This document shows, in pieces, positions 7,791-56,400 of a stretch of 64,000 nucleotides of DNA. The notes below the pieces were generated by a model. That model made no database searches. It worked only from the letters and a program-made list of their open reading frames with translations, and was not told the origin of the DNA. Every line of letters starts with the position of its first letter. Positions within the stretch are counted from its first letter, which is position 1. Origin of the DNA: Planctomycetota bacterium. Its GTDB lineage: Bacteria; Planctomycetota; UBA1135; UBA2386. Location: NCBI GenBank assembly GCA_041398565.1, contig JAWKUN010000002.1, forward strand, positions 338,068-402,067, given 5' to 3'. The position numbers were made by a program, and so were the translations under genes.

Positions 7791-7945
7791 CGAATCACCT
7801 CCTGAACTTCAGCTCGGCCGCCCGACGCAGCGAAGTCATCTCTCCCAGACGTTGTGGACGCGTCCGGTGCAAGCCAGCCCAGCGTTGCCATGGCCAGCAG
7901 GGCGAGGTTGCCGCGGCGGAAAGCGCTACGCGGCGACCGCGTTAG

Positions 7946-7996
<51 letters not shown>

Positions 7997-8276
7997 CTCC
8001 GGATCTTCGAATGCAGCATGCGAGACTCCCGTTTGGTCTTCATTCCCCGTGTTGCCAGTTGCCTGGATGCGATGCCGTCGACTCGTCAAAGGGCCGCTCT
8101 GACGATGGCAAAGAGGCTAACCCGGCGTCGTCAGGCGTCAAGGCACCCCCGAACGGTCACTTTGCCCGTGGCCCACGCGGCGGTCCAGACGGTCGCAACG
8201 GTCGCACCTCCCCCACCTGCCCTTCTTGCCCAGACCGAGCGCCGAACCACCGGCGAGGCTGGCTACGCTGCCGCGC

Positions 8277-24289: not shown

Positions 24290-25174
24290 TCACGTTGCTC
24301 TGCGCCAACCTCGACGGCTTCTCCCTGCACGCGGCAGTCCGCGTCGATGGCTGCAACAAGGACCGACTCGAGCGTCTGTGCCGCTACGCTCTTCGGCCTG
24401 CCCTCGTGCACGAACGCTTGTCGCTGACGCCCGGCGGCAAAGTGCTATGCGTTCAAGCGACCTTGGCGCGACGGTTCGACCCACGTGGTGCTCGACCCAC
24501 TCACTCTCTCGAGCGCCTGGCCGCCTTGATCCCTGCCCCACGCAAAAAGCTCATCACCCACCATGGGGGCTTCGCGCCCGCCTTCCCTCTGCGGCACACC
24601 GTCGTGCCGCCCCCGCCGGTCGCAGAAGCCGCCACTGATGTACCCGTCGAGCATCCTGACCCGCTCCGCGCGTGTGCGCACGCCGCCTCGGCGCCAGCCT
24701 CGGTTCCTCTCTCGACACCCGCCACCGCCGAGGCGCCGCCGAACAAAGCTCGGCCCAAGCCCCGGCCCCGCTACCTGTGGGCCGACCTCCTACGCCGCAC
24801 CTACCTCGTCGACGTACTCACCTGCCCAACCTGCAAGGGCAGACGCCGCCTCCTCGCCTTCATCACCGAACGCGAGTCCATCGTCAGGATCCTTCGCCAC
24901 CTCGGCTTGCCCACCGAGCCGCCGGTCGTGGCTCCCGCCAGACCGCCACCGGCCTTGGCGCTGCCGTTCTCGTAGTTCCCAGTCCTCCGCCCGCATGCCA
25001 GCCACTCCGGGCCGCCTGGATCTCCGTACCCATCACCGCCACGACCATGCTCACCGGCTAGAACACCCGCCCGTCCAGCCAGTGCGACCGAGCACCGGGC
25101 ACGACGCGCCCGAAACCAACCATTGGCCCACCAGGACCAAACCCGAGGGACGCAGCTTGCTCTTCTTATCCCGC
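24290..25174 (+). mobile_element. IS91-family element, 3' half only (fragment 'a'): frameshifted transposase C-terminus plus right-end tail
   Basis: ORF 24100..24975 contains CANLDGFSLHAAVRVDGCNKDRLERLCRYALRPALVHERLSLTP, then a frameshifted stretch, then LERLAALIPAPRKKLITHHGGFAPAFPLRH...TCPTCKGRRRLLAFITERESIVRILRHLGLPTEPP. This is paralogous to 47873..49402. The about 200-bp tail after the stop matches 49403-49487 plus 51320-51433. Confidence 0.8.
25153..25174 (+). repeat. IS91-like right-end (putative oriIS) 22-mer cagcttgctcttcttatcccgc, copy a
   Basis: An identical 22-mer occurs at 31392 and 51412, and a degenerate copy at 42961. It marks the point where homology between IS91 copies stops. 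Confidence 0.65.
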
Positions 25175-38322: not shown

Positions 38323-38961
38323 ATGGCTGCTGCACCCTCGTTGCGACATCTCCTCGAAAGTGGTCAGGCCTGGCGGCTCGGCGCCGAGCATGCCGCGCCC
38401 TCGACGTGGACACTCTCCGGTCTGAGTGGGCGCTACGTCGAGCTGGCGGCGCACGGTCCGGCCGCGCGGCTGACCCTGGCCGGCGCGCTCGTGCTCGAGG
38501 CGCAGCTCGCCCGCCAGCCGGCGGCGTGGATCACGTCGCCGCAGTCGTCCTTCCACCCGCCCGATCTCGCGCACAACGGTGTCGACCTCGCTGCGCTGGT
38601 GGTGGTGCGCGTGCCGAGGACCGACGCGATGCTGCGCGCGGCCGAGATCCTGCTGCGCGCCGGCGCGTTCGCCCTCGTCGTCGTCGATCTCGAGAGCGCG
38701 CAAGACCGAGGCGACGTCGCCCTGGCGGCGCAGACGCGGCTCGTCGGTCTGGCCCAGCACCACGGCTCCCTCCTCCTGTGCCTCACGTGCAGCGACGACC
38801 GCGCGCCGCACTCGCTCGCCTCGCTGCGCGTCGAGGCGAGCTTGCGCCCGCTCCCCGACCAACGCTTCGCCTGCGAACTCGAGGCGGTGAAGGACAAGCG
38901 TGCCGGTCCTGGCTGGCGCGCGCAGGTGGTGTGCCGCGGCGTGCCCGGCCTCGCCGTCTGA
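38323..38961 (+). CDS. imuA: ImuA-like (RecA-fold, SulA/ImuA family) protein, 212 aa; only full-length copy in the window
   Basis: A GGAG motif lies 3 nt upstream of the ATG. The sequence LSGRYVELAAHGPAARLTLAGALVLEAQLARQPAAWITSP...PPDLAHNGVDLAALVVVRVPRTDAMLRAAEILLRAGAFALVVVDL...LEAVKDKRAGPGW matches my memory of deltaproteobacterial ImuA proteins. No imuB or dnaE2 follows. Confidence 0.6.
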   Translation: MAAAPSLRHLLESGQAWRLGAEHAAPSTWTLSGLSGRYVELAAHGPAARLTLAGALVLEAQLARQPAAWITSPQSSFHPPDLAHNGVDLAALVVVRVPRTDAMLRAAEILLRAGAFALVVVDLESAQDRGDVALAAQTRLVGLAQHHGSLLLCLTCSDDRAPHSLASLRVEASLRPLPDQRFACELEAVKDKRAGPGWRAQVVCRGVPGLAV

Positions 38962-40487
38962 ACGCGAGGGAGCGAACGGTCCATCTCGGCAGACCGACGG
39001 ACCGGCACAGCAAACGGCGCGCGACGAAGCCGGCCGTCACACGGAGCGACCGCGGCGCCGCCCAGCGATCAGCGCACCGCCGGTGGCCATCGCCTCCGGC
39101 CCGGTGACCGAACGCTCGTCCCGGGCCACTCGTCCTGCCGGTGGTCTCCATCGCCCGGACTGGCAGCGCCGGCAGCCCGCGACCACCGTTCCCTACCGGC
39201 TCCTCACCGAACGCCTCGAGACCTTCTCGCCCGCACCGCCGACGACGATTGCGCCGGCCCCCTGCCGCGCTTCGTCGTGCGCGAGCTACGCGACTTCGCC
39301 TGCGGACTCGCGCCGCTTCTGCCGCGTCCACTGCGACTCGTGCGGCAAAGACGACCTCGCCGCATTCTCCTGCAGGCGCCGCGGCATCTGCCCGTCCTGC
39401 GGAGCGCGCCGCATGGTCGATGGCGCCGCGTGGCCGGTCGACCGTCTTCCCCGACGTTCCCGTGCGCCGGTGGGTGCTGTCGCTCCCGCACCGAGTGCGC
39501 TGGGCCTGCGCGTTCGACCACCGTGCCACGCAAGGCGTGCGCAAGATCCTCGTGCGCGCACTCGCAGGCTTCTACTGCACCGACGCCAGAACGCGCGGGA
39601 TCGTGAACGCCAAGGCCGGCGCCGTCGTCTCGGTGCAGCGCTTCGACTCCGCCTTGCGCCTGAACATCCACTTCCACTCGCTCTGGCCGGATGGGACCTT
39701 CACCTGTGCCCTGCGCCAACCCGAGGCCACGTTCCACCCGGCTCGCCGGATCACCGACCAAGATCTCGAAGGTCTCGTGCAGAAGATCCGCCGCCGCGTC
39801 CTGTGCTACCTGCGCAAGACCGGCAAGCTGACCGATCTCGACACGGCAGATCACGACGTACAGGATCCGTCCCTCTTCGACACCTTGCGCGCCGCCGCGA
39901 TCCAGGGCAAGACCGCGCTCGGCACGCGGGCTGGACGGATCGATCCCCGCCTCGGCCAGGGCTCGCGGGTCGCCACCGACTTCACGCGCGGCAGGCTCTG
40001 CGCCAACCTCGACGGCTTCTCCCTGCACGCCGCCGTACGCATCGATAGCCGCAACCGCGACCGCCTCGAGCGTCTGTGTCGCTACGCGCTGCGGCGGCCG
40101 TCGTCCACGAACACTCGAGCGCTTGTCGCTGACCCTCTCGGGCAAGTGCTCTACGAGTTCAGGCGACCGTGGCGCGACGGATCGACCCACGTGGCGCTCG
40201 ACCCACTCACTCTGCTCGAGCACCTGGCGGCCTTGATCCCTGCCCCACGCCGGAAGCTGGTCCCCACCACGGGGTCTTCCCGCCCGCCTTCCCTCCGCGT
40301 CACACCGTCGCGCCCCCGCTGCCAGAGCCTGACACCGTAGCGCCGGTCGAACATCCTGACCCGTACCGCGCGTGAGCACTCCGCCTCGGCGCCGGCCTCG
40401 GCCTCGGATCCTCTCGCGACACCCGCCGCCAAACAAGCGCCACCGAACAAAGCTCGGCCCAAACCCCGATCCCGCTACCTGTGGGCC
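38443..40487 (+). repeat. Segmental repeat copy 1 (imuA 3' part plus IS91-like transposase region), homologous to 47176..49210
   Basis: The coordinate offset is a constant 8733 nt through the imuA stop (38961 versus 47694). The ORF translations are near-identical until about 40.09 kb and then clearly diverge, with indels. The repeat ends abruptly at gtgggcc|tagctcgag (40487). Confidence 0.85.
39100..40487 (+). pseudogene. IS91-family transposase, copy 1: multiple frameshifts and 3'-truncated
   Basis: The N-terminal motifs lie in three different frames, as in copy 2. ORF 39141..40340 carries VFPDVPVRRWVLSLPHRVRW...QRFDSALRLNIHFHSLWPDG...CANLDGFSLHAAVR...RLERLCRYAL. An 8-nt insertion and further shifts follow, and homology stops at 40487, before the CPTCKG zinc motif. 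Confidence 0.8.
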
Positions 40488-40490
40488 TAG

Positions 40491-40619
40491 CTCGAGCTCG
40501 GCTACGTGGCAAAGGACAGGGTCGCGCTCGACGACGCGTCGCGCGCCGAGGTCGAAGCGTTCCTCGATGGCTTCGACGACCACGACGACGTGCACCGCAT
40601 CTACACGGGCATCGATTAG
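40491..40619 (+). pseudogene. C-terminal 42 codons of a YebC/PmpR-family regulator gene (remnant)
   Basis: My translation is LELGYVAKDRVALDDASRAEVEAFLDGFDDHDDVHRIYTGID*. It resembles the ...LxxLIDxLEDxDDVQxVYxN tail of YebC proteins. An in-frame TAG lies immediately upstream, at the IS91 truncation junction. Confidence 0.45.
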
Positions 40620-40820
40620 TCAACGCCAGCGGAGCGCTCCTTCGCACTCCCCGGCCGTCGGCTGATATCGAACGCCGCTGGTTCGTTGGGCCCGGACGCG
40701 CGACCCGCCCAGTCCACCGGAGGCAGGCGAGTTGACCGGATGCCGGCGCCATGCGAGGCTTCGTGTTCCGACTCGAATACCGGTCGAGCGCAGCCACGGC
40801 GCCGCCCCTCCGACCACCCG

Positions 40821-42227
40821 ATGAAGGCGTTCGTCTCTTCCACCTACGAGGATCTGCGTGAGCATCGTGCCCACGTGATCTCGGCCCTGCGACGCGCCGG
40901 GATTGCCGTCGACCCGATGGAGGATTGGACGGCGACGGGTTCGGAGCCACGCGAGTTCTGCGCCGACCGGCTTCGGGGCTGTGAAATCTGCGTGCTGTTG
41001 GTCGCCAGGCGGCGTGGCTTCGTGCCGCCGCGCGAGGCCAAGAGCATCACCCAGATCGAGTACGAGGCGGCCCGCGAGCGGAAACTGGAGGTCCTCGTGT
41101 TCCTGCTCGACGATGGCGCGCTGTGGCGACGCGAGTGGGACGAACTCGATCGCGATCCCGAACTCCGGCGCTGGCGCGAACGGCTCACCACCACACATGG
41201 TGTCGAGTTCTTCTCGCACGACCCGCGGTCCATCGACGTCGCGCCGGCTGTCGCGCGATGGGTGGCCAGAGGCGCTCCCCCCCAGCGGGTGGTTCGTGAG
41301 CAGTTCCGCGTCGAGTGGTCGGTGTTCCTGCCGTTCTGCCCGGGCGTGCCACCGCCTGACGGGGAGATCCCGGGGCTGCGGCTGTCGGCTGCGGATGCGG
41401 AGTCGACTAGCTTCGAGTCAGCAGCGGATGCCAATCTGACGATGCGGTGGTTCGGGTTCGGCGGCGCGGTGTGGACGCTGCGGCAGGAGCGCCGGTTCGG
41501 CACCCTCGCGGAGTTCGCGCAATCCCGCCGCCAACTCTACCGGGCCATCCTGCACCACCCCGCGCGCGCTGCGGACCACGCGATCCCGGCGCTGACCGCG
41601 GCAGTGAACGAGGCGGCGGCGGCGCGCTGCGCCGCCGCCCTCTGCCAGCGACAGATCGGGTACGCGCTGAGCCTCGTCAGCCTCCTCGATCCGGGCTGGC
41701 AAACGCTGCAGATTCCGCACGCGCTCCAGGTGCTCGCCTGCCCGAGCCTCCTGCTCAATCTCCCTGAAGCAGAGGACTGTGCCCTCGACGATCATGCCGC
41801 GGACCCCCTGGTCCTGGACCACCGCGAAGCCGCGCTCGTCGCCGACGGCAATCGCGGCCACGACCTGAAGGAGTTCCGCCTGCCCGGCGTGATGCACGCC
41901 GTCGCGTGCTGGGCCGGCGTGGCGGCGCACGTGCAGTCGACGCACCGAGATGCCATGGTTGCGGCATTCGTCCGCTTCGAGGAATTGATCCAAGCGCTAT
42001 GGTGGCGGCTGCACTCCCTTGAATCGCTGCTCGACGTGGGGCAGATCCCACAGGAGGCGAAGGCGCAACTCACGTCCATCGAGCGCCACGTCCACAAGGC
42101 CCTGCGGATCGGTCCGACCGAGGTGACGGCGACGAGGCTGTTCAAGGAAGCCGTTATCCAGACGAGCCGGATCGAGTCCGTCTTCAATGAGTTCCGAAAC
42201 ACGGTGCGAGACCTGAGATCGCCATGA
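40821..42227 (+). CDS. DUF4062-type N-terminal domain protein with an unrecognised ~330-aa C-terminal domain (468 aa)
   Basis: Inner start of ORF 40686..42227. The N-terminus MKAFVSSTYEDLREHRAHVISALRRAGIAVDPMEDWTATGSEPREFCADRLRGCEICVLLVARRRGFVPP...SITQIEYEAARERKLEVLVFLLDD fits the (V/A)F(I/V)SSTxxDLxxER...E signature of DUF4062 (from memory). The rest has no motif I recognise. Confidence 0.75.
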   Translation: MKAFVSSTYEDLREHRAHVISALRRAGIAVDPMEDWTATGSEPREFCADRLRGCEICVLLVARRRGFVPPREAKSITQIEYEAARERKLEVLVFLLDDGALWRREWDELDRDPELRRWRERLTTTHGVEFFSHDPRSIDVAPAVARWVARGAPPQRVVREQFRVEWSVFLPFCPGVPPPDGEIPGLRLSAADAESTSFESAADANLTMRWFGFGGAVWTLRQERRFGTLAEFAQSRRQLYRAILHHPARAADHAIPALTAAVNEAAAARCAAALCQRQIGYALSLVSLLDPGWQTLQIPHALQVLACPSLLLNLPEAEDCALDDHAADPLVLDHREAALVADGNRGHDLKEFRLPGVMHAVACWAGVAAHVQSTHRDAMVAAFVRFEELIQALWWRLHSLESLLDVGQIPQEAKAQLTSIERHVHKALRIGPTEVTATRLFKEAVIQTSRIESVFNEFRNTVRDLRSP

Positions 42228-42778
42228 GCAAGCCCCTCCTCCTGGTCGTCGACGTACAGGTCGGATTCGTGAACCCGGCGACCGAACATGTGCTGGATCC
42301 GATCGTCGACCTCGTACGTCTCGCGGACGCGCAGGGCGTTCCGGTCGCGTTCACGCGATTCCTGAACTTCGCGGGGAGCGGGTGGGTGAAGTGGTTGCAC
42401 TGGTCACGCTTCATGGCGAGCCCCGAGATCGACCTGCATCCGCGGGTACTGCCGCTCGCCCGGAACGTCTTCGACAAGTCGGCCTATGGCGCCTTCACTC
42501 CCGCGTTTGTCGAGTTCGTCGCACGGCACGAGATCGACCGGATGTTCTTGTGCGGTGTTGCGACCGACGGCTGCGTGCTCAAGAGCGCCGTCGACGCCTT
42601 CGAGCGGGACATCGAACCATTCGTCATCGTGGACGCGTGCGCCAGCCACGCTGGTTCCGCGGTGCACCAAGCGGGACTCCTGCTCGCCTCGCGGTTCCTC
42701 GGCAAGGGGCAACTCATCACGATCGACGATCTGACGTCTGCTGGGTTCGGGGCACCGGTGTTGGCGGCGCGGCGCTGA
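42224..42778 (+). CDS. Isochorismatase-family (cysteine hydrolase / nicotinamidase-like) protein (184 aa)
   Basis: The N-terminus is MSKPLLLVVDVQVGFVNP. Candidate triad residues are D10, K85 (FDKSAYGAF) and C117 (GVATDGCVLKSAVDA). The start overlaps the upstream stop in an ATGA. Confidence 0.85.
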   Translation: MSKPLLLVVDVQVGFVNPATEHVLDPIVDLVRLADAQGVPVAFTRFLNFAGSGWVKWLHWSRFMASPEIDLHPRVLPLARNVFDKSAYGAFTPAFVEFVARHEIDRMFLCGVATDGCVLKSAVDAFERDIEPFVIVDACASHAGSAVHQAGLLLASRFLGKGQLITIDDLTSAGFGAPVLAARR

Positions 42779-42960
42779 CCCCGGGACCGCGGCAGTTCAC
42801 GACCGGGTTCGCCGTGATCCCCGGCAAGAAGGGCGACCGCGTCGACCTGCGCGGGCGCTTCGTCTGGTGCGGCCGCGGCGCCGAGGAAGAGCTGCCCAAG
42901 GGCCTGGCCAACGCGATCCCGGTGGTGCTGGCCGGCGGGAGCATCCGACCACGCGGGACG

Positions 42961-42982
42961 CAGCTTGCTTGCCTTGTCCCGC
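42961..42982 (+). repeat. Degenerate copy (d) of the IS91-like right-end motif
   Basis: gggacgCAGCTTGCTtGcCTTgTCCCGC compares with gggacgCAGCTTGCTCTTCTTATCCCGC at 25147 and 51406. Confidence 0.45.
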
Positions 42983-43025
42983 GTGCGAGACGAGCGAGTC
43001 GAACGCGGGTCCGCTCGGGCCAGCG

Positions 43026-43094
43026 GTAGACCCCAACCGTGAATCCACAGGCGTAGATCCACAGCCGTGAGTCCCCAGCCTCGAGTCCACCGCC
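43026..43094. repeat. Degenerate 14-bp tandem repeat, about 5 units (consensus GTRRRTCCMCAGCC)
   Basis: Read directly: gtagaccccaacc / gtgaatccacaggc / gtagatccacagcc / gtgagtccccagcc / tcgagtccaccgcc. The period is not a multiple of 3. It lies between the degenerate IS91 end and the stop codon of the ELW paralog 4 gene (43105). Confidence 0.7.
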
Positions 43095-43104
43095 TCGACG
43101 CACG

Positions 43105-45885
43105 TCAGCGCCCGAGGCGCCAAAACAGGCCGTTCGACAACTCGAGGCCGGACGCCGACCCGACGACCGCTTCGAGCAGGATCGACGCGTCGAGCAGGTC
43201 GCGCGTTGCGGGGATCGGCAACAGCTCGTCGAGGCGGCCGCCCTGGAAAGGCCGCGTCCACTGCGCGGTCGGCCCGTTCCACTGGCCCCATGTCACGCAA
43301 CTCGTGCCCGGCAGCGCGATCGGCGCCGGCGCCGACAGCAGCAGGCGCAGGGCGGCCACCCCGGTCGCGGGCAACGCCGCCAGGTGGAGCCGGGCGGTGC
43401 CGCCGAGCACCGGGACCGAGCCGCTGAGCTCGGGGACCACAGCCCGGACACCGCAACCGAGGCCCAGCACCTGCGCGGCCGCCCCGACGTCGAGCACGAA
43501 CGGTTCGCTGCCGTGCACCAGGTCGTCGGCGCCGAAGTACACCCGGCCCGCGGCGTGGCACAGCGAGGTGAAGTCGAACGGCGGCGTCGGCAGCAGCGTG
43601 GTGCCGGCGGCGGTGCCGTCCGAGCGCAGGATGCCGCTCGGCACCAGGCTCGCCCAGTAGGCGTAGCGGCCGTCGGCGTCGACGAACTCGCCGAGCGCCT
43701 CGCGGTCGCGCAGGCGCACGGTGCCGGCGGCGGTGCCGTCGGTGCGCCAGATGCCGCGTGGCGTGCCGATGAGGACGCGACCGTCCAACGTCGACAGGTT
43801 GACGCGGTCGCCCTCGACGTCGCCGACGTGAAGCGTCCCCGCGGCGGTGCCGTCGGTCACCCACACCGCGCTGGATGGGGAGGAGGGCGGCTCGACCATG
43901 TAGGTGCGGCCGTCGACGGTCAGTGCCTGCCAGACGCCAGCGAAGGGCATCAACGCCTGCGTGCCCGACGCGGTGCCGTCCGAGACGTAGAGGCGGTTGA
44001 GACCGCCGTCGATCGCCGTGAACAGCACGCGATCATCGAGGGCCGCAACCGGGGCCACGCGCGCGTCCTCGCTGCCGTTGAGGCTGAGCACCTGGTGCGT
44101 GCCCGCGGGCGTGCCGTCGCTCACCATGAGCTCGTACTTGCCCCGGGCGACGCGGCCAGCGAAGAAGACGCGCGTGCCGACCCGCACCTGGTCGGAGGTC
44201 GGACGCGCGTCCGCCAGGTGGGTCGCCGCCAGGCCGTCGGTCACCCAGATCGAATCGTCCTCGAACACCGAGGCGGTCAGCGCCAGGATCGCCCGCCCGG
44301 CGTCGAGGGGACGCAGGCGCGCCTGCAGCAGTCCGGCGGGCCGCGGCAGCAGGACCCGGGTACCGGCGGCAGTCCCGTCGCTCACGTACATCGCCGGCCC
44401 GGTCGGCGCGAGCGCACTGAAGTAGACCAAGCCGGCGTGCCAGCCGTAGATGCGCGGGTCGGACGAGGCGCGGCCCGGCGAGAGATCGGTCACCAGGCGC
44501 GTGCCGGCGGCGGTGCCGTCGGTCCACCACAGTTCGCGACCGTGCACGTCCTCGTAGGCGGCGAAGAACGCCGACCCCGCCGCCGCCGTGAACCCGTTGG
44601 GCCACGAGCTCTCGCTGACGATGCCGGGCGCGAGGTCGGCGAACAGCGACGTGCTCAGACCGCCGGTCGTCAGCCAGAGTTCCTCGCCGGCGATGCCGTC
44701 GTCGGCGCCGAACAGCGCCAACCCGCCGCTCGCGGCGCCGGCCTGCACCCGCGCTCCGAACACGTGCAGCACGAAGGGCGGCGCCACGTCCGAGACCCTG
44801 GCCAGGATCGATGTCCCCGAGGGCGTCGTGAACGCGTGCAGCAGGTCCGAGCCGAAGGGAAGCAGCAAGTCGTGGCGCGCCGACTGCGGTCCGGGGACCG
44901 CGTCGTACGCGAGACGGGTGCCGGCCGCCGTGCCGTCGCTCAGCCACAGCTCGGCGCCGTGGATCGCGTCGTTCCCGACGAAGTACAGGGAGTTGCCAGC
45001 CGGAGTCAGCAGGCTGGGAGTGACACTCGTGAGGCGCACCGGCTGCGGGTTCGCGACGTCGAACGCCGAGAGTAGGCCATCCTCGATGAAGACGACGCGG
45101 CCCGGCAGGGCGGCGAAGTCGGCCACCGCCGCGGCGGTCGGAACGACGAGTCGGCTCGAGGTCGCGTCGGCGCGGTAGATGCCACCGTCGGAGCCGTAGT
45201 AAGCGGCGTTGCCGACCGCGACCGGCTGCATGAGGATGTGCGCCGACCGCCCGAGCCGCTGCGTTCCACTGGCCGTGCCGTCGCTCCGCCACACTTCCAA
45301 CCCGGAGTTGAACACCCACGACGAGCCGAACGCGGCGGCCCGGCGCGTCAAGCCCAGGACGCCGTGGAAGGCATCGATGCGCACGGTGCCGGTCGCCGTG
45401 CCGTCGGTCCGCCACAACGCGTCGGTGGTCATCAACAGCAGCGACCCGCTCGCCTCGCCGGCCAGGATCCAGATGGACTGCCCGAAGGCGAACAGCCGGC
45501 GCGTGCCCGCCGCCGTGCCGTCGCTCACCCAGAGCTCTTGCGGCCCTCGCACCTGGCCGGCGGCGAACACGACGCCGCCGCCCAGCGGCGTCACCTGCGT
45601 GATCGGCACCTCGCTCGGTCCGGGCGCCAGGTCGGTGAGATGCAGGGTCCCGGCAGCGGTGAAGTCGCTGCGCCAAAGCTCACGCCCGTCGGCCTGCGTG
45701 CGCGCCGTGAAAAACACGCGCCCGCCGGCGGCGGTGAAGTCGCGCGGCGCCGAGTCCGCGGGGCGCAGGGTCGCGCGCACGTCGGCGACGAGCTGGGGTG
45801 CTTGGCCAGCGAGATCGCCGGGGTGGAGCGTTGCCGCAAGGAGACCGCATCCGGAAGCGAGGGTGCCGAGAGTTCGAGGCCACAT
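43105..45885 (-). CDS. ELWxxDGT-repeat secreted protein, paralog 4 (926 aa)
   Basis: Only the 3' 926 codons of track ORF 43105..47595 are real. The start is MWPRTLGTLASGCGLLAATL. Repeats include GRELWRSDFTAAGT, QELWVSDGTAAGT, AELWLSDGTAAGT and GRELWWTDGTAAGT. The C-terminal Cys domain reads GLGCGV...GTSCVTW...SNGLFWRLGR. Confidence 0.85.
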   Translation of the reverse strand: MWPRTLGTLASGCGLLAATLHPGDLAGQAPQLVADVRATLRPADSAPRDFTAAGGRVFFTARTQADGRELWRSDFTAAGTLHLTDLAPGPSEVPITQVTPLGGGVVFAAGQVRGPQELWVSDGTAAGTRRLFAFGQSIWILAGEASGSLLLMTTDALWRTDGTATGTVRIDAFHGVLGLTRRAAAFGSSWVFNSGLEVWRSDGTASGTQRLGRSAHILMQPVAVGNAAYYGSDGGIYRADATSSRLVVPTAAAVADFAALPGRVVFIEDGLLSAFDVANPQPVRLTSVTPSLLTPAGNSLYFVGNDAIHGAELWLSDGTAAGTRLAYDAVPGPQSARHDLLLPFGSDLLHAFTTPSGTSILARVSDVAPPFVLHVFGARVQAGAASGGLALFGADDGIAGEELWLTTGGLSTSLFADLAPGIVSESSWPNGFTAAAGSAFFAAYEDVHGRELWWTDGTAAGTRLVTDLSPGRASSDPRIYGWHAGLVYFSALAPTGPAMYVSDGTAAGTRVLLPRPAGLLQARLRPLDAGRAILALTASVFEDDSIWVTDGLAATHLADARPTSDQVRVGTRVFFAGRVARGKYELMVSDGTPAGTHQVLSLNGSEDARVAPVAALDDRVLFTAIDGGLNRLYVSDGTASGTQALMPFAGVWQALTVDGRTYMVEPPSSPSSAVWVTDGTAAGTLHVGDVEGDRVNLSTLDGRVLIGTPRGIWRTDGTAAGTVRLRDREALGEFVDADGRYAYWASLVPSGILRSDGTAAGTTLLPTPPFDFTSLCHAAGRVYFGADDLVHGSEPFVLDVGAAAQVLGLGCGVRAVVPELSGSVPVLGGTARLHLAALPATGVAALRLLLSAPAPIALPGTSCVTWGQWNGPTAQWTRPFQGGRLDELLPIPATRDLLDASILLEAVVGSASGLELSNGLFWRLGR

Positions 45886-46452
45886 GGTCGGAAACGAGGG
45901 GGTCCATCTCGCGGGTCGGGGGCGCCGCACGAGTCGCGCCTCCGAGCGCAAGATCGAGCGAGTCGTGACGGCGAGAGTTCGCGGAAAGCGTGACGGCGCC
46001 ATGGTGCAACGCCTGGGACGCTCGGCGACCGCGGTGGTCTCTCGAAGCCTGTGAGAGAATCGAGGGTGCAGGCTCCGAGCCATGTTGATGGCGATCGCCT
46101 TCGCGATCGCGAGCCTTTCGGCTCGGTGGAGAGCACCCGACCTCGCGAGACCGGCGGCGCGGCGAGCCCCTTGCGCGTGCGTCCGACCCACTCGGATCCA
46201 GCCGACTCGGGCGCTCGACCCCTGCCGATCCGGGCCACGCACAGGAAAACGCGGAACACCGCGCCCGGTCTTCCCCTGGTCGTGGTGAGGACTTGGTGAC
46301 GCCCCCCGGCGCTCGTCCTGCCTCCTTCGCTCCCGCGCCTGCACCGCCATGACCGACGACCCCGACGATCGCGTCCAACGCCTGGCCGACGTGACCGAAG
46401 CCCGGCGGACGCACCTCCCGTCGACGCGCGACGGGGCCCCCTCGACAAAGCA

Positions 46453-47694
<1,242 letters not shown>

Positions 47695-47872
47695 ACGCGA
47701 GGGAGCGAACGGTCGCTCTCGGCAGGCCGACGGACCGGCACAGCAAACGGCGCGCGACGAAGCCGGCCGTCACACGAAGCACCGCGGCGCCGACAAGCGA
47801 TCAGCGCACCGCCGGTGGCCATCGCCTCCGGCCCGGTGACCGAACGCTCGTCCCGGGCCACTCGTCCTGCCG

Positions 47873-49402
47873 GTGGTCTCCATCGCCCGGACTGGCAGCG
47901 CCGGCAGCCCGCGACCACCGTTCCCTACCGGCTCCTCACCGAACGCCTCGAGACCTTCTCGCCCGCACCGCCGACGACGATTGCGCCGGCCCCCTGCCGC
48001 GCTTCGTCGTGCGCGAGCTACGCGACTTCGCCTGCGGACTCGCGCCGCTTCTGCCGCGTCCACTGCGACTCGTGCGGCAAAGACGACCTCGCCGCATTCT
48101 CTTGCAGGCGCCGCGGCATCTGCCCGTCCTGCGGAGCGCGCCGCATGGTCGATGGCGCCGCGTGGCCGGTCGACCGTCTTCCCCGACGTTCCCGTGCGCC
48201 GGTGGGTGCTGTCGCTCCCGCACCGAGTGCGCTGGGCCTGCGCGTTCGACCACCGTGCCACGCAAGGCGTGCGCAAGATCCTCGTGCGCGCACTCGCAGG
48301 CTTCTACTGCACCGACGCCAGAACGCGCGGGATCGTGAACGCCAAAGCCGGCACCGTCGTCTCGGTGCAGCGCTTCGACTCCGCCTTGCGCCTGAACATC
48401 CACTTCCACTCGCTCTGGCCGGACGGGACCTTTACCTGTGCCCTGCGCCAACCCGAGGCCACGTTCCACCCGGCGCGCCAGATCACCAACCAAGATCTCG
48501 AAGGTCTCGTGCAGAAGATCCGCCGCCGCGTCCTGTGCTACCTGCGCAAGACCGGCAAGTTGACCGATCTCGACACGGCAGATCACGACGTACAGGATCC
48601 GTCCCTCTTCGACACCTTGCGCGCCGCCGCGATCCAGGGCAAGGCCGCGCTCGGCACGCGGGCTGGACGGATCGATCCCCGCCTCGGCCAGGGCTCGCAT
48701 GTCGCCACCGACTTCACGCGCGGCAGGCTCTGCGCCAACCTCGACGGCTTCTCCCTGCACGCCGCCGTACGCGTCGATGGCTGCAACCGCGACCGTCTCG
48801 AGCGTCTGTGTCGCTACGCGCTGCGGCCCGCCATCGTCCACGAACGCTTGTCGCTGACTCCCTCGGGGAAAGTGCTCTACGCATTCAAGCGCCCCTGGCG
48901 CGATGGATCGACCCACGTGGTGCTCGATCCTCTCACTCTGCTCGAGCGCCTGGCGGCTTTGATCCCTGCCCCACGACGAAAGCTCGTCACCCACCACGGG
49001 GTCTTCGCGCCCGCTTTCCCTCTGCGTCACACCGTCGTGCCGCCGCCGCCAGAGCCCGACACCCAAGCACTCGTCGAACAGCCTGACCCGCACCGCGCGT
49101 GTGCGCATCCCGCCTCGGCATCGGCCCCGGTTCCTCTCTCGACATCCGGCACCGCCAAGGCGCCGCCGAACAAAGCTCGGCCCAAGCCCCGACCCCGCTA
49201 CCTGTGGGCCGACCTCCTACGCCGCACCTACCTCGTCGACGTACGGACCTGCCCAACCTGCAAGGGCAGACGCCGCCTCCTCGCCTTCATCACCGAACGC
49301 GAGTCCATCGTCAGGATCCTTCGCCACCTCGGCTTGCCCACCGAGCCGCCGGTCGTGGCGCCCCCCAGACCGCCCCCGACCTTGGCGCTGCCGTTCTCGT
49401 AG
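47873..49402 (+). pseudogene. IS91-family (Y2/HUH rolling-circle) transposase, copy 2: long ORF, but the N-terminal zinc-binding region lies in other frames
   Basis: ORF 47873..49402 carries VFPDVPVRRWVLSLPHRVRW, QRFDSALRLNIHFHSLWPDG, CANLDGFSLHAAVRVDGCNRDRLERLCRYALRP and CPTCKGRRRLLAFITERESIVRILRHLGLP. The expected upstream motifs are TVPYRLLTERLETF (frame of ORF 47815), PLPRFVVRELRDFACGLA (frame of ORF 47145) and RRFCRVHCDSCGKDDLAAFSCRRRGICPSCGARRMVDGAAW (frame of ORF 47815). Reading them together requires three frame changes. Confidence 0.75.
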
Positions 49403-49487: not shown

Positions 49488-51315
49488 ACCTTGAACCAGC
49501 GAACTCGCGCCCGCTGAAAGTCTGAAGATCCCCGAAACACCACTCTCCGCCGTTCGTACGTGCTTCTGCACAACAACGAACCAACGCCAGGGAGGGCGTT
49601 CCGGGTGAACACGAAAGTACGAGATGAGATCCTCCGGCGCCAGCGTCGGAACACGCGGCGGCTGCAGCAAGCAGGGGGCAACGACGGCCAGCCCGTGCTG
49701 GACACGAGGAGCGCGGAGTTCGAGATGTCGAACCGGACCTGCGCCACGAGCGCCGGCGGCGTGCGACTTGCCCACGACCTTGCGCGCTCGGTGGAGTTGC
49801 CACAAGCGATCGATCAGCAACTCAACCTGCTGAAGCTGCACCGCCCGTACTACGAGTCGGACCATGTGCTGTCGCTGGCCTACAACCTGCTCGCCGGCGG
49901 CACCTGCATCGAAGACCTCGAGCAACGCCGAAGCGACGACGCCTTCCTCGACATGCTTGGCGTGGACCGCATCCCCGACCCGACGACGGCCGGCGACTTC
50001 TGCCGCCGCTTCGGCAGCAAGCAAAACGTCGACGCACTGCAGGACGCGATCAACGAGAGCCGCCTCCGCGTGTGGCAGCGGCAGTCGAAGGACTTCTTCG
50101 CGCAGGCCATCGTCGACGCCGACGGCACGATCGCAGAGACCACCGGCGAGTGCAAAGAAGGCATGGACATGTCCTTCAAGGGGCAGTGGGGCTACCAGCA
50201 CCTCATCGTGTCGTTGGCGAACACGCAGGAGGTCTTGTTCCAGGATCTGCGACCCGGCAACCGCCCGTCGCACGAGGGTGCGGCCGAACGACTCGACCAA
50301 GCAGTCGCGCTGCTGCGGCGCGGCGGCTTTCGGAAGATCCTGATGCGCGGCGACACCGCCTTCAGCCAAACGGTCTTCCTCGACCGCTGGGATGCCGACT
50401 GCATCGAGTTCGTGTTCGGCATCCAGGCTGCCGAGAGCCTGCGCGAAACCGCCGATGCGCTGCCGGACTCGGCCTGGACGGTGCTTGAGCGCAAGCCGCC
50501 GTACGCGGTCCAGACGTCGCCGCGGGCGCGCCCGCGCAACGTGAAGGACGACATCGTCATGGAGCGCGAGTACTACAACCAGCACCTCTGCCGCGAGGAC
50601 ATCCCCGAGTTCGACTACCGCCCGAGCGCGTGCAAGGTGCCGTTCCGCATCGTCGTGCTGCGCAAGATCATCTCGCACGAGCGCGGACAGAAGCTGCTGC
50701 ACGCCGAGCACCGCTACCTCTTCTACATCACCAACACGGCGCATCCGGCTGCGCGCGTCGTCGAGCTTGCGAACCAGCGTTGCAACCAGGAGCGTACGAT
50801 CGGCGAGCTGAAGTCGGGCGTGAACGCACTACGCATGCCGCTCGGCGATTTGGTGTCGAACTGGGCCTACTCGGTGATCGCGACGCTGGCGTGGAATCTG
50901 TCGCGGTGGATCGCCCTGATGCTGCCAGCGCGTGGCAGGTGGCGCGACAAGCACGCCGAGGAGAAGCGTGACGTGCTCCGCATGCGCTTCCGGACCTTCG
51001 TCCAGCGGCTGATGCTCTTGCCGGCTCAGGTCGTAACGACCGGTCGCCGGCTCGTCGTGCGGTTGCTCGACTGGAATCCCTGGCGACACGTCTTCTTCCG
51101 CGCCATCGAGTCGGTCCAGCTCACGACGTAGCTGGCCAACCCCGAAGCCAGAGCACGGACGCTCTGGTCCGCCGCGGACCTCGAAGCACGCAAGGAGTCG
51201 ACACCAACAAGATGGACAACTCGACGATCACCGCGACCGGCCCTGGCCGGTCAGGCGGCGGCGCGTACGCTCGCGCTCGGACGTGCGGAGCCAGTGATCT
51301 TCGCTTGTTTGAGGG
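49488..51315 (+). mobile_element. IS1380-family insertion sequence (~1.83 kb) nested in the IS91 tail, with a CTAG (or CTAGA) target duplication
   Basis: The uninterrupted tail at 25049 reads ctcaccggCTAGaacacccgcc. Here ctcaccggCTAG|accttgaacc appears at 49484-49487 and ...ttgagggCTAG|aacacccgcc at 51316-51319. The imperfect terminal inverted repeats are ccttgaaccagcgaa and ccctcaaacaagcgaa (about 12 of 16 match). Confidence 0.85.
49560..51131 (+). CDS. IS1380-family DDE transposase
   Basis: The 523-aa ORF is protein-like throughout. Segments include DHVLSLAYNLLAGGTCIEDLE, AIVDADGTIAETTGECKEGM, ILMRGDTAFS and ANQRCNQERTIGELKSGVNALRMPLGDLVSNWAYSVIATLAWNLSRW, which matches the family's C-terminal signature as I recall it. 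The true start may be internal. Confidence 0.85.
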   Translation: MLLHNNEPTPGRAFRVNTKVRDEILRRQRRNTRRLQQAGGNDGQPVLDTRSAEFEMSNRTCATSAGGVRLAHDLARSVELPQAIDQQLNLLKLHRPYYESDHVLSLAYNLLAGGTCIEDLEQRRSDDAFLDMLGVDRIPDPTTAGDFCRRFGSKQNVDALQDAINESRLRVWQRQSKDFFAQAIVDADGTIAETTGECKEGMDMSFKGQWGYQHLIVSLANTQEVLFQDLRPGNRPSHEGAAERLDQAVALLRRGGFRKILMRGDTAFSQTVFLDRWDADCIEFVFGIQAAESLRETADALPDSAWTVLERKPPYAVQTSPRARPRNVKDDIVMEREYYNQHLCREDIPEFDYRPSACKVPFRIVVLRKIISHERGQKLLHAEHRYLFYITNTAHPAARVVELANQRCNQERTIGELKSGVNALRMPLGDLVSNWAYSVIATLAWNLSRWIALMLPARGRWRDKHAEEKRDVLRMRFRTFVQRLMLLPAQVVTTGRRLVVRLLDWNPWRHVFFRAIESVQLTT

Positions 51316-52091: not shown

Positions 52092-53420
52092 TCATCCCTC
52101 GGTGCTTTCGCTTAGCTGCTTCATGAGTGACTGGGCGAGGAACCCGTACGCGTCCTCGGCCTGCGACGGCCCGCGTTGCTTCGTGAACTCCACGGCCGAG
52201 GCGAAGGCTGCGACGCCGATCCGGGCTTCCCCGACGGCGAACGCGAGCATCGCCTCCTCGAGGAACTGCAGTTCGGTCGACGCCTGTCGCGTTCGCACAG
52301 CGTCGAGCAGAAAGCGCAACGAACCCGTGTCGTCCGCGGACAGTTCGGTTCCTTTCTCGACGACGTCGAACAGGTCGGGCACATAGGCCTGAACGAATTG
52401 GCTTGCCATCGTGCCCAATGCGCGCTGCAGGCCGGCGATGATCGCGCGCGCGCGTTCCTCGGGCGGCGTGCCCGCCGGCGGCCGCGCGGCATCAGCGGGC
52501 GCTTTCTCGGCGATGTCCTTCATCATGCGATGCGTGGCGCCGGCACCGAGAATGCCGTCGGCGACGTTGGGCGACGGGTCGACGCTTTGCAGCGCGTGCA
52601 GGGCGATCGCGGCTTCGGCGAAGCGGCCGCTGTTGAGCAAGTACATCAGCAGGCAACACCAGCCGTGGATGTGCATCGGCTGGCGTTCCAGCAACCGGGC
52701 GATCTCGCAGCAGTCGCGAAACCAGGGTACAGCGTCCCTGGCCGTGAGCCCGCCCGTTGCCTCCGTCTTCCTAGCCAGATCCTGCAAGCGGGCGACGATG
52801 GCGAGGACGTTGTCGCCGCGGTCGCCTGTTCGGCGTGCGATGAAGTCGCGCGTCTGAGCGGCGTGTTGGTTGTCGGGTTCCTTCTCGAGCACACGGTCGA
52901 TCCGCGCCATGCCGTCGACCGGATCGCCGAGGAGAGTCACGATCTGGGATGCGTACACGGCGAACTCGGCCACGTCGGAGTAGAGCGAGTCGAGCAGTTT
53001 CACGTGATCGCGGGCCCGCTCGGCCATCGGCCCCGACAGCTCTACTCCTCCCGATGCGAAGCACTTCGATCGAAGGCGAATCATCGTCGGCAGCATGCCG
53101 CCTCCCATCGAAGCCGCGAGGTGAACCACGACGGCACCGTCCGTCTGCTGGATATCCGGGTTCAGGTGGATGGCCTTGGGGTCCTTCGCGAGCTCTCGCA
53201 AGTGTCGCAGCTGCTGCTCGAACCCGTCCGGCATCTTCAGAACGCGGTCGAGGAGCTGCAGAGCCTCGGCTTCGCGGTCGCCGCCGTACAGTTCTTCGAT
53301 CTTGCGTAGCACCGAGAGGCCGTCGCTCATTCGCGGGCTTTCGCGTTCGGATCCCGACTCTGCCGGCTGCTTGCCGCCCTGCCCGAGCGCGGCCCGGAGT
53401 TTGTCCATTCGGTTCTTCAT
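52092..53420 (-). CDS. Hypothetical all-helical protein (442 aa), translationally coupled partner of the STAND protein
   Basis: The ORF is protein-like (MKNRMDKLRAALGQGGKQPAESG...KQLSESTEG), with no motif I recognise. Its ATG overlaps the upstream stop in an ATGA (53417-53420). An AGGAGA Shine-Dalgarno lies 5 nt upstream of the ATG (53426-53431, minus strand). Confidence 0.7.
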   Translation of the reverse strand: MKNRMDKLRAALGQGGKQPAESGSERESPRMSDGLSVLRKIEELYGGDREAEALQLLDRVLKMPDGFEQQLRHLRELAKDPKAIHLNPDIQQTDGAVVVHLAASMGGGMLPTMIRLRSKCFASGGVELSGPMAERARDHVKLLDSLYSDVAEFAVYASQIVTLLGDPVDGMARIDRVLEKEPDNQHAAQTRDFIARRTGDRGDNVLAIVARLQDLARKTEATGGLTARDAVPWFRDCCEIARLLERQPMHIHGWCCLLMYLLNSGRFAEAAIALHALQSVDPSPNVADGILGAGATHRMMKDIAEKAPADAARPPAGTPPEERARAIIAGLQRALGTMASQFVQAYVPDLFDVVEKGTELSADDTGSLRFLLDAVRTRQASTELQFLEEAMLAFAVGEARIGVAAFASAVEFTKQRGPSQAEDAYGFLAQSLMKQLSESTEG

Positions 53421-56400
53421 GATGTTCTCCTGTCGGCGTGCGCGGCAAGTTCGACGCGGTAGGTGCGCACGCTCCCGTCGTCACACAGGACGTGAACGGA
53501 TTCGCCGTCGTTCGCAAACGCGACGTCCTTCACGGCTTCGTCCATCGGGAGCGTGGCGAGGGGATCGGTCGATCCGATGCGCCAGAGATGAAGGCAACCG
53601 TTGGCGTGCACGCTGCAGAATGTCGGGTCATCGCAGCGCCAGGCGATCAGCTGCTGGCATGACGAGGTAGTGCCCCGGAAGAGGAGCCGGCGAGACTTCG
53701 CGGTCGCGAATCGGCCGAGCTCGTCGCCACTGCCAGTATCCCACGCCACGATCGATCCGGCGATTGGCCCATGCGCGGTGATCGCCGTAGCGTCGTCGAG
53801 CAACGTCAGCCTGGTCGTCGCCGATTCGACCTCGATGCCACCGAGGACGTCCCACCGCGGGATCGCCACCGCGAAACATGCGACGCGGTCGAGAGCGACG
53901 ATGCACGTCGCGCCGGACGGCGAGACGGCGAAGTCGTCGACGCGCGCATCGACGCGGTGGACGGCCTTCGTGCCGTCGCGGCCGAACAGCACGATTCGGT
54001 CGCTCATCGCTGCCACGCACGCGATCGGACCCGAAGAGAGCAACGCGTGGCGCACGATCGAACCAGCGGCGCCGGTGTCGTCGTGAGGGTCGTACACGGC
54101 GACACGTTGTCCTGTCATCGGTTGCCATACGTGAATCAACTCGTCGGCTCCGATCGCGGACAGCAGATCACCGTGCCACCGCGGCTCGCGCAGGAATCCG
54201 GCGCCGGGCCGGACGGTGCGCGCAACTGCACGTGTCTCGGCATCGACGATGTAGAGGACTCCGGTGTACGACAGGGCAACACGGCGGCCGTCCGGCGAAA
54301 GGGCGCCGCCGTCCAGCCCCACCCCATCCGGTAACTCGGCACCCATCGCACCGTTGTCGTTCGCGTTCAGCACGAACAGCTCCGCCATCCCGCCGGCGAC
54401 GAGTTCGTTTCGTCCGGCCAGGAGGTCCAGGGAACGAATGCCGTCCGGTGAATCCCGCAGTCGCCTAACTACGCCGGTGCCGAGATCGAGCGCGATGGTG
54501 CCACCTGTCGCGAGCCGTTGATCCGGTGCGCTCGACGCCGCGATGACACGCTGCCCGACATCGTCGAAGACCAGCGATGTAACGCACTCGCGCAGGTACG
54601 TGTCGCCGGTCACGTCATCAGCAAGTTTGCCGTCCACGACCATGAGCCGCCGCGAGTGCTGCTCGGTCAGATTGCGAAACTGGCGTTCTGCCCATCCGGG
54701 TTGGCACGCCTCGATAAAGCCGGTGTCCGCGTTCACGACGAACACGCCGCCCTGCGAGGTTCCGATCGCGACGTAGCGACGAGAGCGGGCCACAGCGACC
54801 GCCGAAACGCTGCTCGGCCATTCCATCTTGAAGAAGACCGACGGTGAGGAACCATCGATCGGCAGGCGCCAGACTGACTTTTGTCCATCGTACTCAGAAC
54901 GCCCGAGCACGGCGAAGACGGCCGAGCCGTCGGGGGCCGAAGCCATCGACACGACGCCCTGAGCGGTCGCGTCGCCGACATCCTTGATGTCCTCTTCGAC
55001 GAGATCGACGACCGAGAACCGCACTACGTCCTTCATCCGAATGGCGACGACGACCAGGCCGTCGCGGCCGATGTGCGCGGCCTCCAAGTCCGCGCCGACG
55101 GTCGCGAGCTTGGCGATCCTGCGGCCGTCGATGTGCGCAGCAACGATGTCGCCGTTCTTGCGGACGGTCATGATCAATCCGCGATCTCCGAGCCAGCGGA
55201 CCGCCAACGGCGTGTCCGCCGCGGACTTCGACGCGTGTTCCGTGATCGTCCAGACCTTGCGGCGTTCGTCGACGTCCCAGACGTCGAGTGATTCTCGGCC
55301 GATTGCGGGGCCCTCCGATCGACACACGAACTGGCGTTGGGCGGGGCTGCACGACACGAGGTCGTACGACGCGGCGGAATCGAGGACGACTCGTCCGGTC
55401 GCTCGGGATGGCGATGTCGGCGTTCGTTGCGGCGTGATCGCGCGGAACCAAACGCCGCGGCGTGACAGGTGCAGGGCGGCCGAGTTGCGGATCCGGGGCG
55501 ATGCGCTGGCCGAGTTCGCGAGATGCTGCGCGACGAGCTCGGGGTACATTCGAGTCTCGAGTTGGACGGCAAGCAGAGCCCGTCGCAGGTCGGCGGCGAG
55601 TTCGCGCGTCGATGCTGGCAGGTTGTTCCGGCCGGCGAACGTCTGCAAGTCGTTCGCGAGGTGCATCACACCGAGATGATCGACGCGCTGGGTGTGCCGA
55701 TAACTAACGTGCAGGTGCGTGCAGTAGGCCGTGATGAACTCACTGTCCAGCAACGCGGCCTCCGCTTGGTCGTGCATGTCGTACGTCAGCGACAGGGCAT
55801 GCAGGCGTTCGGTCAGGTTGCGCAGATCCGCGGAGTCGCCGGTCATCACAGGCCGGTTGCAGAAGTAGCGCGCGACCGCGGAGTGGAACGCGGCGCGATC
55901 GTCACCCGAGCCGAACAGCAAACGCGCGACTGATTCGACGGCCGCGCCGGCAAACCGCAGAGTCGTGCCGCCGAACGCGCGGCCCGGAACCAGGAAGCGG
56001 TCGATGTCGTGACAGAACCGCAAGAACACCGATGCCGGGACGGCGCGGATGCCCTTGAGTTCGTGTGCTGAGTCAGCGACGAGGTCGTTCCAGAACTCAT
56101 CGTCGGCCGCGAGCAGATCCGTGAGTTCCTGTTCTGTCAGACCGAACCGCGATGCGAGCACGAAGGCGCAGGCGCGCCGCACGAGTACCGGGCTGTGGTG
56201 GGCGACCTTCGAGAGGCCGCGCAAGTCGTCACGAATGAACTCCGCGGCGGAGCGAGCGAGGTTGCTCGGATTCTCCCAGGAACGCCACTCGCGGGCTGCG
56301 AGTGCGATCATCCGGCTGTAGTGCGGAGAGACACGCTCGCCGAACCGATCCCGCAGAACCTCGAGCTGTCGAGGTGCGACCGTCCGCCGCATACGGAAGC

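Follow-up and report, generated by a model that had tools for sequence, protein, structure and literature searches.

A conserved C-terminal domain couples a DUF4062 protein to an isochorismatase-family hydrolase in a Planctomycetota bacterium: a candidate sensor-effector module with exchangeable outputs

Why should a gene for a DUF4062 protein be followed so tightly by one for an isochorismatase-family hydrolase? The question is raised by a two-gene cassette in a 64,000-nt stretch of a Planctomycetota bacterium genome (GenBank assembly GCA_041398565.1, contig JAWKUN010000002.1, positions 338,068 to 402,067 of the forward strand; this whole stretch is called the window hereafter, and positions are counted from its first letter). 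The open reading frame (ORF) list places gene A at 40821-42227 (+ strand; 468 aa, starting MKAFVSSTYEDL) and gene B, encoding an isochorismatase-family cysteine hydrolase of 184 aa, at 42224-42778 (+ strand), and the stop of gene A and the start of gene B share an ATGA, just as an initial annotation made from the DNA letters had described. The start of gene A is an ATG within a longer ORF that opens with TTG (40686-42227), and its protein is identical to P0001, annotated as 'MAG: DUF4062 domain-containing protein [Planctomycetota bacterium]', where MAG denotes a metagenome-assembled genome. Both genes are intact and keep all conserved residues. We give nearly an even chance to the reading that the two genes of the cassette form a sensor-effector module belonging to an undescribed family, in which gene B would buffer the ligand of the C-terminal domain of gene A.

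The evidence starts from that C-terminal domain, the proposed ligand sensor (41283-42224, + strand; about 310 aa; here the C-domain). A word-indexed search with gene A returned one full-length relative (P0002, 50% identity), together with four proteins that matched only its C-terminal 65-79% and carried no DUF4062; on the contigs of all four, an isochorismatase gene lay directly downstream. The question therefore became one of the C-domain and isochorismatase, not of DUF4062 and isochorismatase. An exhaustive profile search with alignment A1 against 1.84 billion representatives gave 166 matches, and re-scoring of the candidates with a domain-only hidden Markov model (HMM) found the C-domain in 142 (about 140 clusters), with E-values for members of 1e-50 to 1e-108. 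By hhalign, the same domain was recognised in two proteins of other kinds, one of 422 aa without any Pfam match (probability 100, E 5e-94) and a SIR2_2 protein of 532 aa (probability 99.8, E 2e-27). Its conserved motifs are PFCPG, RWF..GAAVW, IGYALS, GYA(S/C)WAGV, LQALWW and IGPTE...RLFKEAVI.TSR. The C-domain had no match in Pfam, NCBIfam, PADLOC, PHROGs or the PDB (sequence or Foldseek), and the initial annotation could not assign these C-terminal 330 aa or so either; they are, however, not an unassigned appendage but the defining, conserved core of the system.

The isolated C-domain was modelled by AlphaFold2 (AF2) with a predicted local distance difference test (pLDDT) value of 92.9 and a predicted template modelling score (pTM) of 0.92, and the model shows helices inserted into a mixed beta-sheet, with four long helices at the C-terminal end. 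The model of the whole gene A protein reached pLDDT 84 and pTM 0.74. A Foldseek search of the C-domain model against the PDB and BFVD gave nothing significant; the top matches were the soluble domains of ZntB and CorA (E 0.04-0.24, template modelling (TM) score about 0.2), which we treat as a lead only. A profile search of PDB sequences matched only the winged helix-turn-helix heads of some family members.

At each of the 17 distinct loci to which the C-domain led, the gene that follows directly on the same strand encodes an isochorismatase. The C-domain proteins of these loci carry DUF4062 heads (the window, L001, L104 and L107), a SIR2 head (L008), a TIR head (L011), a trypsin head (L014), a kinase head (L105), Trans_reg_C heads (L012 and L109), an HTH_31 head (L013, partial), XRE heads on Streptomyces linear plasmids (L102 and L103) and unknown heads (L002, L003, L004 and L110). 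Both C-domain homology (hhalign 99.8-100) and the same-strand downstream isochorismatase gene (ATGA) are present in the window cassette, and conservation of the pairing outside this genome, on which the initial annotation had made its proposal depend, was found in four of four DUF4062-type loci. For the converse scan from the hydrolase side, the isochorismatase alignment A6 was run on one genome per species and the 80 best loci were kept; metagenomes were covered with alignment A1. A C-domain gene lies directly upstream in 52 of these 80 best hydrolase loci, and in three a divergent C-domain gene lies downstream, not upstream, of the isochorismatase gene (L050, 6405-7688; L058, 6513-7721; L061, 6538-7767; from Salinibacteraceae, an actinomycete and Saccharibacteria MAGs). 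At L075, the hydrolase gene is followed at once by a second C-domain gene in the opposite orientation (6556-7965, - strand). Two Streptomyces loci of the 80 keep frameshifted or remnant C-domain genes upstream of an intact isochorismatase gene (L084, 4987-5966; L088, 5621-5932), so that the enzyme can outlast a decaying sensor.

Among 60 non-redundant pairs, the stop of the first gene and the start of the second lie between -11 and +36 nt apart, most often -4, with one outlier at -170, and the distance matrices of the two proteins are correlated (r = 0.92, Mantel p = 0.001, 60 pairs), a value to which shared phylogeny contributes. Chance is excluded as the source of the gene pairing. The hydrolase tracks the C-domain and not the NADase, as it also follows C-domain proteins with helix-turn-helix (HTH), trypsin or kinase N-termini. 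In addition, 33 hydrolase positions, the catalytic triad included, are at least 95% conserved over the 60 pairs whatever the head of the partner, indicating one conserved hydrolase job that belongs to the C-domain and not to the output domain. When neighbourhoods were clustered, the pair alone was conserved; the hypothesis of a third gene was rejected, no further gene being universally conserved in them. The INPHARED phage collection gave no match, and IMG/VR held only seven isochorismatase relatives, four of them with a C-domain neighbour, on contigs of which some come from isolate genomes and are possibly proviral.

The heads attached to the C-domain were counted by a Pfam scan of 116 members. 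Trans_reg_C (OmpR-type) was found in 29, HTH_31 in 20, HTH_3 in 18, SIR2_2 in 10, Trypsin_2 in four, DUF4062 in three, and TIR_2 and Pkinase (a Ser/Thr kinase) in one each; HTH_31 and HTH_3 are related XRE-type models, so that some members are probably counted under both. The counts agree with a clustering of the N-terminal regions, and most partners of the C-domain are OmpR-type or XRE HTH domains. The DUF4062-headed form is rare (three clusters among the representatives and one further metagenome locus), and its four loci span 49% to 70% GC. When relatives were compared with PADLOC, only the N-terminal heads matched: the TIR head to the ThsB model (7e-48), the SIR2 head to the pAgo-SIR2, ThsA and PDC-S65 models, and the trypsin head to PDC-M35A, by which the SIR2, TIR and trypsin heads are predicted to be of defence type. 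The trypsin-headed gene lies in a five-gene operon, Macro - Trypco1/Pepco - trypsin-C-domain - isochorismatase - NUDIX (L014, 91-3635). Trypco1/Pepco is a latent death effector that is cleaved or released by trypsin proteases attached to diverse immune sensors (10.1101/2025.11.14.688446), and since the trypsin-C-domain gene adjoins it, the C-domain appears to sit in the sensor slot. The Macro and NUDIX genes give this operon an ADP-ribose theme around a family member with a protease output.

Several of these loci lie in mobile or defence contexts. Those of L003, L011 and L104 are on integrative and conjugative element (ICE) or plasmid backbones, genes for HEPN_AbiU2 and CHAT-TPR proteins lie beside the SIR2-headed pair (L008), and Macro and NUDIX genes accompany the trypsin-headed one (L014). 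The window adds its IS91 copies and a second gene encoding DUF4062 (also named NIR), with STAND and WD40 regions, both detailed below.

In the window cassette, the N-terminal NIR (DUF4062) module covers residues 1 to about 153 (40821-41279, + strand) and comprises a TIR-like core with a helical extension. The DUF4062 assignment made initially is borne out by Pfam PF13271, which matches residues 2-84 above the gathering threshold and over the full profile, 1-82 (E 4.8e-17; score 62.4 bits, cutoff 24.7). Over residues 1-150, gene A shares 54-66% identity with DUF4062 proteins that have other, unrelated C-termini, some of them NACHT proteins, indicating that the head has moved as a unit. Gene A retains every residue conserved among 23 homologues, including E80 in SITQIEYE (the S.TQ.EY motif). 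This residue matches, by position and not by direct alignment, E97, E98, E103 and E108 of characterised homologues; the catalytic Glu is E97 in KpSwz, E98 in Vulcan, E103 in VstA and E1008 in TEP1 (2026 DUF4062/NIR preprints), and from the sequence E80 is likely its counterpart. In Foldseek, the N-terminus of the gene A model matched the TIR domains of RPS4/RRS1 (probability 1.0, TM-target 0.54-0.61), the CMP N-glycosidase BcmB (TM-target 0.66), the SARM1 TIR domain and deoxyribosyltransferases (NDTs), with E only about 1e-3 and a model pLDDT of 60-83 over this part. The TIR- or NDT-like fold supposed at the outset accordingly agrees with these matches. Three 2026 preprints describe DUF4062 ('NIR') as a TIR-like NADase with a catalytic Glu that makes ADP-ribose (ADPR) and nicotinamide in anti-phage defence, and the domain is the effector in Swarozyc, Evangelion, Avs2, Vulcan and Vesta (Vesta: 10.64898/2026.09.04.749371). 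Action of DUF4062 on NAD+, likewise supposed in the initial annotation, has thus been demonstrated experimentally elsewhere (Swarozyc, Evangelion, NIR/Vulcan/Vesta); the gene A head is a predicted NADase, and to that extent the NAD-centred proposal holds.

Gene B is matched by Pfam PF00857 (Isochorismatase) with E 1.5e-30, and its proposed triad, D10/K85/C117, does not vary in the partner alignment A6 and reaches at least 95% conservation in the 60 paired homologues, in agreement with the family and active site first suggested. Its closest PDB relatives are 3eef (CSHase-related) and then Pyrococcus horikoshii PncA (1im5/1ilw), at a similar distance (E about 1e-16). In NCBIfam, BiuH, PncA, RutB and YcaC gave sub-threshold scores of 20-30 bits against cutoffs of 174-378, the PncA equivalog NF008623 scoring 22.3 bits against 174. 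The hydrolase therefore does not fall in a housekeeping PncA or RutB group, whereas membership of such a group was named in the initial annotation as something that would count against its proposal. In the alignment with P. horikoshii PncA, the TRDWH of PncA (D52/H54) lies opposite TRFLN in the gene B family, where A6 shows F46 without exception and N48 is kept in at least 95% of the 60 pairs. We take D52 and H54 to be, as in the PncA structures, metal ligands that hold the pyridine nitrogen; with these replaced by a conserved TRFLN, gene B is not a canonical nicotinamidase. It shares the fold and the D-K-C triad with PncA, CSHase, RutB, BiuH and YcaC but, unlike them, scores far under every NCBIfam equivalog cutoff and has no PncA metal site. 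It makes up a clade of its own, whose members mostly lie beside C-domain genes.

One receiver carried by transcription factors or suicidal effectors, a constant hydrolase and no conserved synthase together point to a small-molecule sensor and an enzyme that acts on its ligand. In the proposed mechanism, the C-domain would hold the NIR NADase off and would bind a small molecule, probably one with an amide, carbamoyl or ureido bond. This ligand, with its hydrolysable C-N bond, would build up in phage infection or under another insult and would switch the NADase on, leading to NAD+ collapse. Gene B, translationally coupled to gene A, would hydrolyse the same ligand, keeping its basal level under the threshold and resetting the system. 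Binding of a small molecule by the C-domain, the nature of that ligand, its degradation rather than synthesis by the hydrolase, and phage defence by this particular copy are steps that we infer.

Parts of this scheme have precedents. Vesta is a two-gene operon of VstA (NIR) and the alkaline phosphatase VstB, the latter being dispensable for defence (10.64898/2026.09.04.749371). Like Vesta, the cassette has two genes, an N-terminal NIR module (here a predicted NADase with a likely catalytic Glu), and a second gene for a hydrolase that is tightly associated across genomes, and VstA also ends in an uncharacterised, putative ligand-binding domain. Unlike Vesta, the partner here is an isochorismatase-family cysteine hydrolase and not an alkaline phosphatase, and VstA is described as small; the cassette is therefore not a Vesta system. 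Going by its description, the C-terminus of VstA is probably distinct and not a detectable homologue of the C-domain, because only three DUF4062-bearing clusters carry the C-domain and all of them have the isochorismatase gene next. In Metis, MisA senses host-derived m6dAMP, the HAD phosphatase MisB degrades the basal ligand and so prevents autoimmunity, and the effectors are swappable, an NAD+ diphosphatase in type I and a membrane protein in type II (10.1101/2025.11.05.686725). The likeness that we propose to Metis is one of logic only, namely an effector-sensor fusion, swappable effectors and a partner hydrolase; the sensor domain, the effector family (NUDIX-type in Metis, TIR-like here) and the partner all differ, and Metis hydrolyses a phosphate ester where hydrolysis of a C-N (amide) bond would be expected here. 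Pfam found no NUDIX or HAD domain in the gene A or gene B protein, which sets the cassette outside Metis.

Swarozyc, Evangelion and Vulcan share with gene A an N-terminal DUF4062 NADase and a variable C-terminal region, which in those systems determines activation. Their C-terminal regions (stem helices, a short AUX region and HEAT repeats) differ from the C-domain, and each system consists of one gene, has no dedicated enzyme partner and responds to phage proteins or replication intermediates; the trigger is the portal for Swarozyc and lambdap79 for Vulcan (DUF4062/NIR preprints). No family in the HMMs of PADLOC-DB v2 matched the gene A or gene B protein, and NCBIfam gave no match for the gene A protein. 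A literature search over 8 million papers gave none with both 'isochorismatase' and 'anti-phage', and neither the DUF4062 papers nor the eLife paper naming Trypco1 mention isochorismatase or nicotinamidase, so the pairing is, as the initial annotation had supposed, not a named defence system. The CARF and SAVED domains of type III CRISPR and CBASS offer a further parallel, in that one sensor family is found on HTH factors or toxic effectors and is accompanied by ligand-degrading ring nucleases. Unlike here, where none is conserved, those systems have a signal synthase (Cas10 or a CD-NTase), and their fold and ligand class are unrelated. Thus the DUF4062 effector and the two-gene logic of effector-sensor plus hydrolase (Metis, Vesta) are already known, while the sensor domain, an isochorismatase-family amidase as the partner and the range of outputs are undescribed.

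Several observations weigh against an immune, ligand-buffering role. HTH fusions account for about 50 of the 60 genomic pairs. Most come from actinomycetes, in which small ORFs upstream encode GntR or XRE regulators (those on Streptomyces plasmids may belong to the plasmid backbone), and in about 10 loci an FAD-dependent, thioredoxin-reductase-like oxidoreductase gene directly follows the isochorismatase gene (L102 and L103, both 7406-8317; L012, 2571-3569; and about seven others). As these loci resemble a catabolic or detoxification regulon, a defence role is not established for the whole family. Among the 80 close isochorismatases, about 22 lack a neighbouring C-domain gene. The C-domain shows no recognisable ligand-binding fold, and a protein or nucleic acid is equally possible as the thing sensed. 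The window, moreover, is no clear defence island: PADLOC returned only generic kinase and Lon/AAA matches for the neighbours, and the placement in such an island raised in the initial annotation was not convincingly borne out. Among the unpaired isochorismatases, those at 43-56% identity come from Nostoc (L022, L024-L026, L039, L052 and L060) and from gammaproteobacterial MAGs (L007, L015 and L016), the latter lying between genes for a glyoxalase and an aldehyde-oxidase-type molybdoenzyme; they might point to the substrate class. The oxidoreductase might act on the same small molecule as the hydrolase; two of the roughly 10 loci that have it (L021 and L074) are without a C-domain gene.

The pair could accordingly be a one-component regulator with a catabolic or detoxifying amidase for an environmental compound, such as an antibiotic or a signalling amide; the HTH fusions, the oxidoreductase and small regulator genes, the unpaired homologues beside glyoxalase and aldehyde oxidase genes and the surroundings in the window all speak for it, the effector fusions would be incidental or metabolic, and the window copy would be passive cargo between insertion sequence (IS) elements. 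We find this quite unlikely, since replacement of HTH by SIR2, ThsB-like TIR, NIR or Pepco-adjacent trypsin has no metabolic rationale and is a signature of defence modularity, effector versions are carried by ICEs and plasmids and adjoin HEPN and CHAT genes, and both window genes have stayed intact with every conserved residue. In the effector-fused members, a regulator-enzyme pair of older origin may have been put to a derived, immune use. As regards the direction of the reaction, the sequence fits destruction or production of the ligand by gene B alike. Strict linkage, operon structure and a conserved active site would be expected equally if the hydrolase converted a phage- or stress-derived precursor into a product that the C-domain senses, thereby activating the NADase; no other signal-generating gene is conserved in the module, and the first enzyme of many catabolic operons makes the inducer. 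Production of the signal nevertheless seems unlikely to us, because Metis MisB and possibly Vesta VstB serve as dispensable buffers, and a constitutively co-translated activator would make the response depend on the appearance of substrate only, which is possible but without precedent among the systems compared.

Two further explanations, toxin-antitoxin-like control and a canonical nicotinamidase, were weighed and ranked low. The initial annotation had suggested a nicotinamidase-like partner that processes the NADase product or blocks salvage, and gene B could indeed remove the nicotinamide released by the NADase, relieving product inhibition and blocking NAD+ salvage by host or phage, or the C-domain itself could sense nicotinamide as an alarm for NAD+ depletion. 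Fusion of three unrelated nicotinamide-releasing NADase families (SIR2, TIR and DUF4062) to the C-domain, the NAD- or ADPR-related genes in L014 (Macro, NUDIX) and L012 (ADP-ribosylglycohydrolase), and P. horikoshii PncA as the second-best PDB relative would all suit this idea. It is very improbable, however, given that the hydrolase follows the C-domain whatever the head, HTH-, trypsin- and kinase-headed proteins keeping the same hydrolase with the same pocket, that the PncA metal ligands D52/H54 are replaced by F46/N48, and that the PncA model scores 22 bits against its cutoff of 174. We give equally little credence to control by protein-protein contact, in which the hydrolase would bind and inactivate the C-domain protein, its release or degradation would trigger the effector, and catalysis would be secondary. 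The tight overlap implies 1:1 co-translation and the distance correlation is strong, both as such a mechanism would have it; yet the triad and the pocket are at least 95% conserved over the 60 pairs, which argues for a retained enzymatic function, and the upstream partner, with its size and several domains, does not resemble an antitoxin. Buffering of a C-domain ligand by gene B is thus the reading that we carry forward.

The cassette lies among the remains of mobile elements. Two copies of a direct repeat of about 2.05 kb, 95% identical, bracket 40494-47175. Copy 1 (38443-40493, + strand) contains the 3' part of a RecA/ImuA-like gene and a truncated IS91-family Y2 transposase gene (39141-40340, with a Y2_Tnp Pfam match), and copy 2 (47176-49216, listed to 49402; + strand) contains a longer IS91-family transposase gene (47873-49402; 509 aa; Y2_Tnp E 4.5e-21). 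Copy 1 ends truncated at 40493, and a partial third copy, 80% identical, lies at 24297-24789. Host sequence carried upstream of the transposase fits the one-ended rolling-circle transposition of IS91-type elements. At about 40491-40617 (+ strand) lies a rearrangement scar, a stub that we take by eye, from its likeness to YebC C-termini, to be the C-terminus of a YebC-family protein (translation '...FDDHDDVHRIYTGID' / 'LELGYVAKDRVALDDASRAEVEAFLDGFDDHDDVHRIYTGID'), and a 14-bp tandem repeat occupies 43020-43098. Of the flanking scars listed in the initial annotation, the truncated IS91 copy and the tandem repeat were found again, the YebC stub being recognised by eye. The low GC content that it gave for the cassette stood in direction but not in size: at 67.4% the cassette is slightly below the window (70.1%), and GC at third codon positions is 84% against 93% in a neighbouring gene, whereas the earlier values of 55-63% were not reproduced.

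Further downstream, at about 43108-46200 (- strand), a gene for a large protein without a Pfam match carries many degenerate 'ELW.SDGTAAGT'-type repeats, which correspond to the 46-86-nt direct repeat families D3, D4 and D8. A Ser/Thr kinase gene (46453-47694, + strand) is cut by repeat copy 2 at about residue 241 (Pkinase profile position 197 of 263) and continues into the duplicated RecA/ImuA-like sequence as a chimeric ORF. Directly after IS91 copy 2 comes a DDE transposase gene (49560-51131, + strand; DDE_Tnp_1_4 E 1e-32), making a pile-up of mobile elements. The second DUF4062 gene of the window (53420-58054, - strand) encodes a protein of 1545 aa in which DUF4062 (E 1.9e-8) is joined to an AAA_16/STAND NTPase and to WD40 repeats at the C-terminus, a NIR architecture like that of NLR/Avs proteins or TEP1. 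This gene is followed with a 4-nt overlap by a 442-aa ORF without a Pfam match (52092-53420, - strand).

Taken more broadly, the C-domain may be a new and widespread family of small-molecule receptors that reads an amide-bearing danger signal and passes it to interchangeable outputs, with the hydrolase setting the threshold, a possibility that we rate somewhat short of even. Its role would then be like that of CARF, SAVED or the Metis sensor, with an unrelated fold and no dedicated synthase, its outputs being three NADase families, a Pepco-activating protease, a kinase and transcription factors, and the window cassette would be the NIR-output member of an undescribed group of 'one-component' immune and regulatory systems. 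If so, a new sensor domain would be connected to at least six output types, among them three NAD+-depleting enzymes, an isochorismatase-family amidase would have its first role within an immune-type module, and the 'sensor plus buffer enzyme' logic of Metis would extend from phosphatases and nucleotides to amidases. It would also explain hundreds of 'XRE/OmpR regulator plus isochorismatase' pairs with generic annotations on the chromosomes and linear plasmids of actinomycetes, and the substrate of the hydrolase would identify a new infection-associated metabolite, naming the molecule that the sensor reads.

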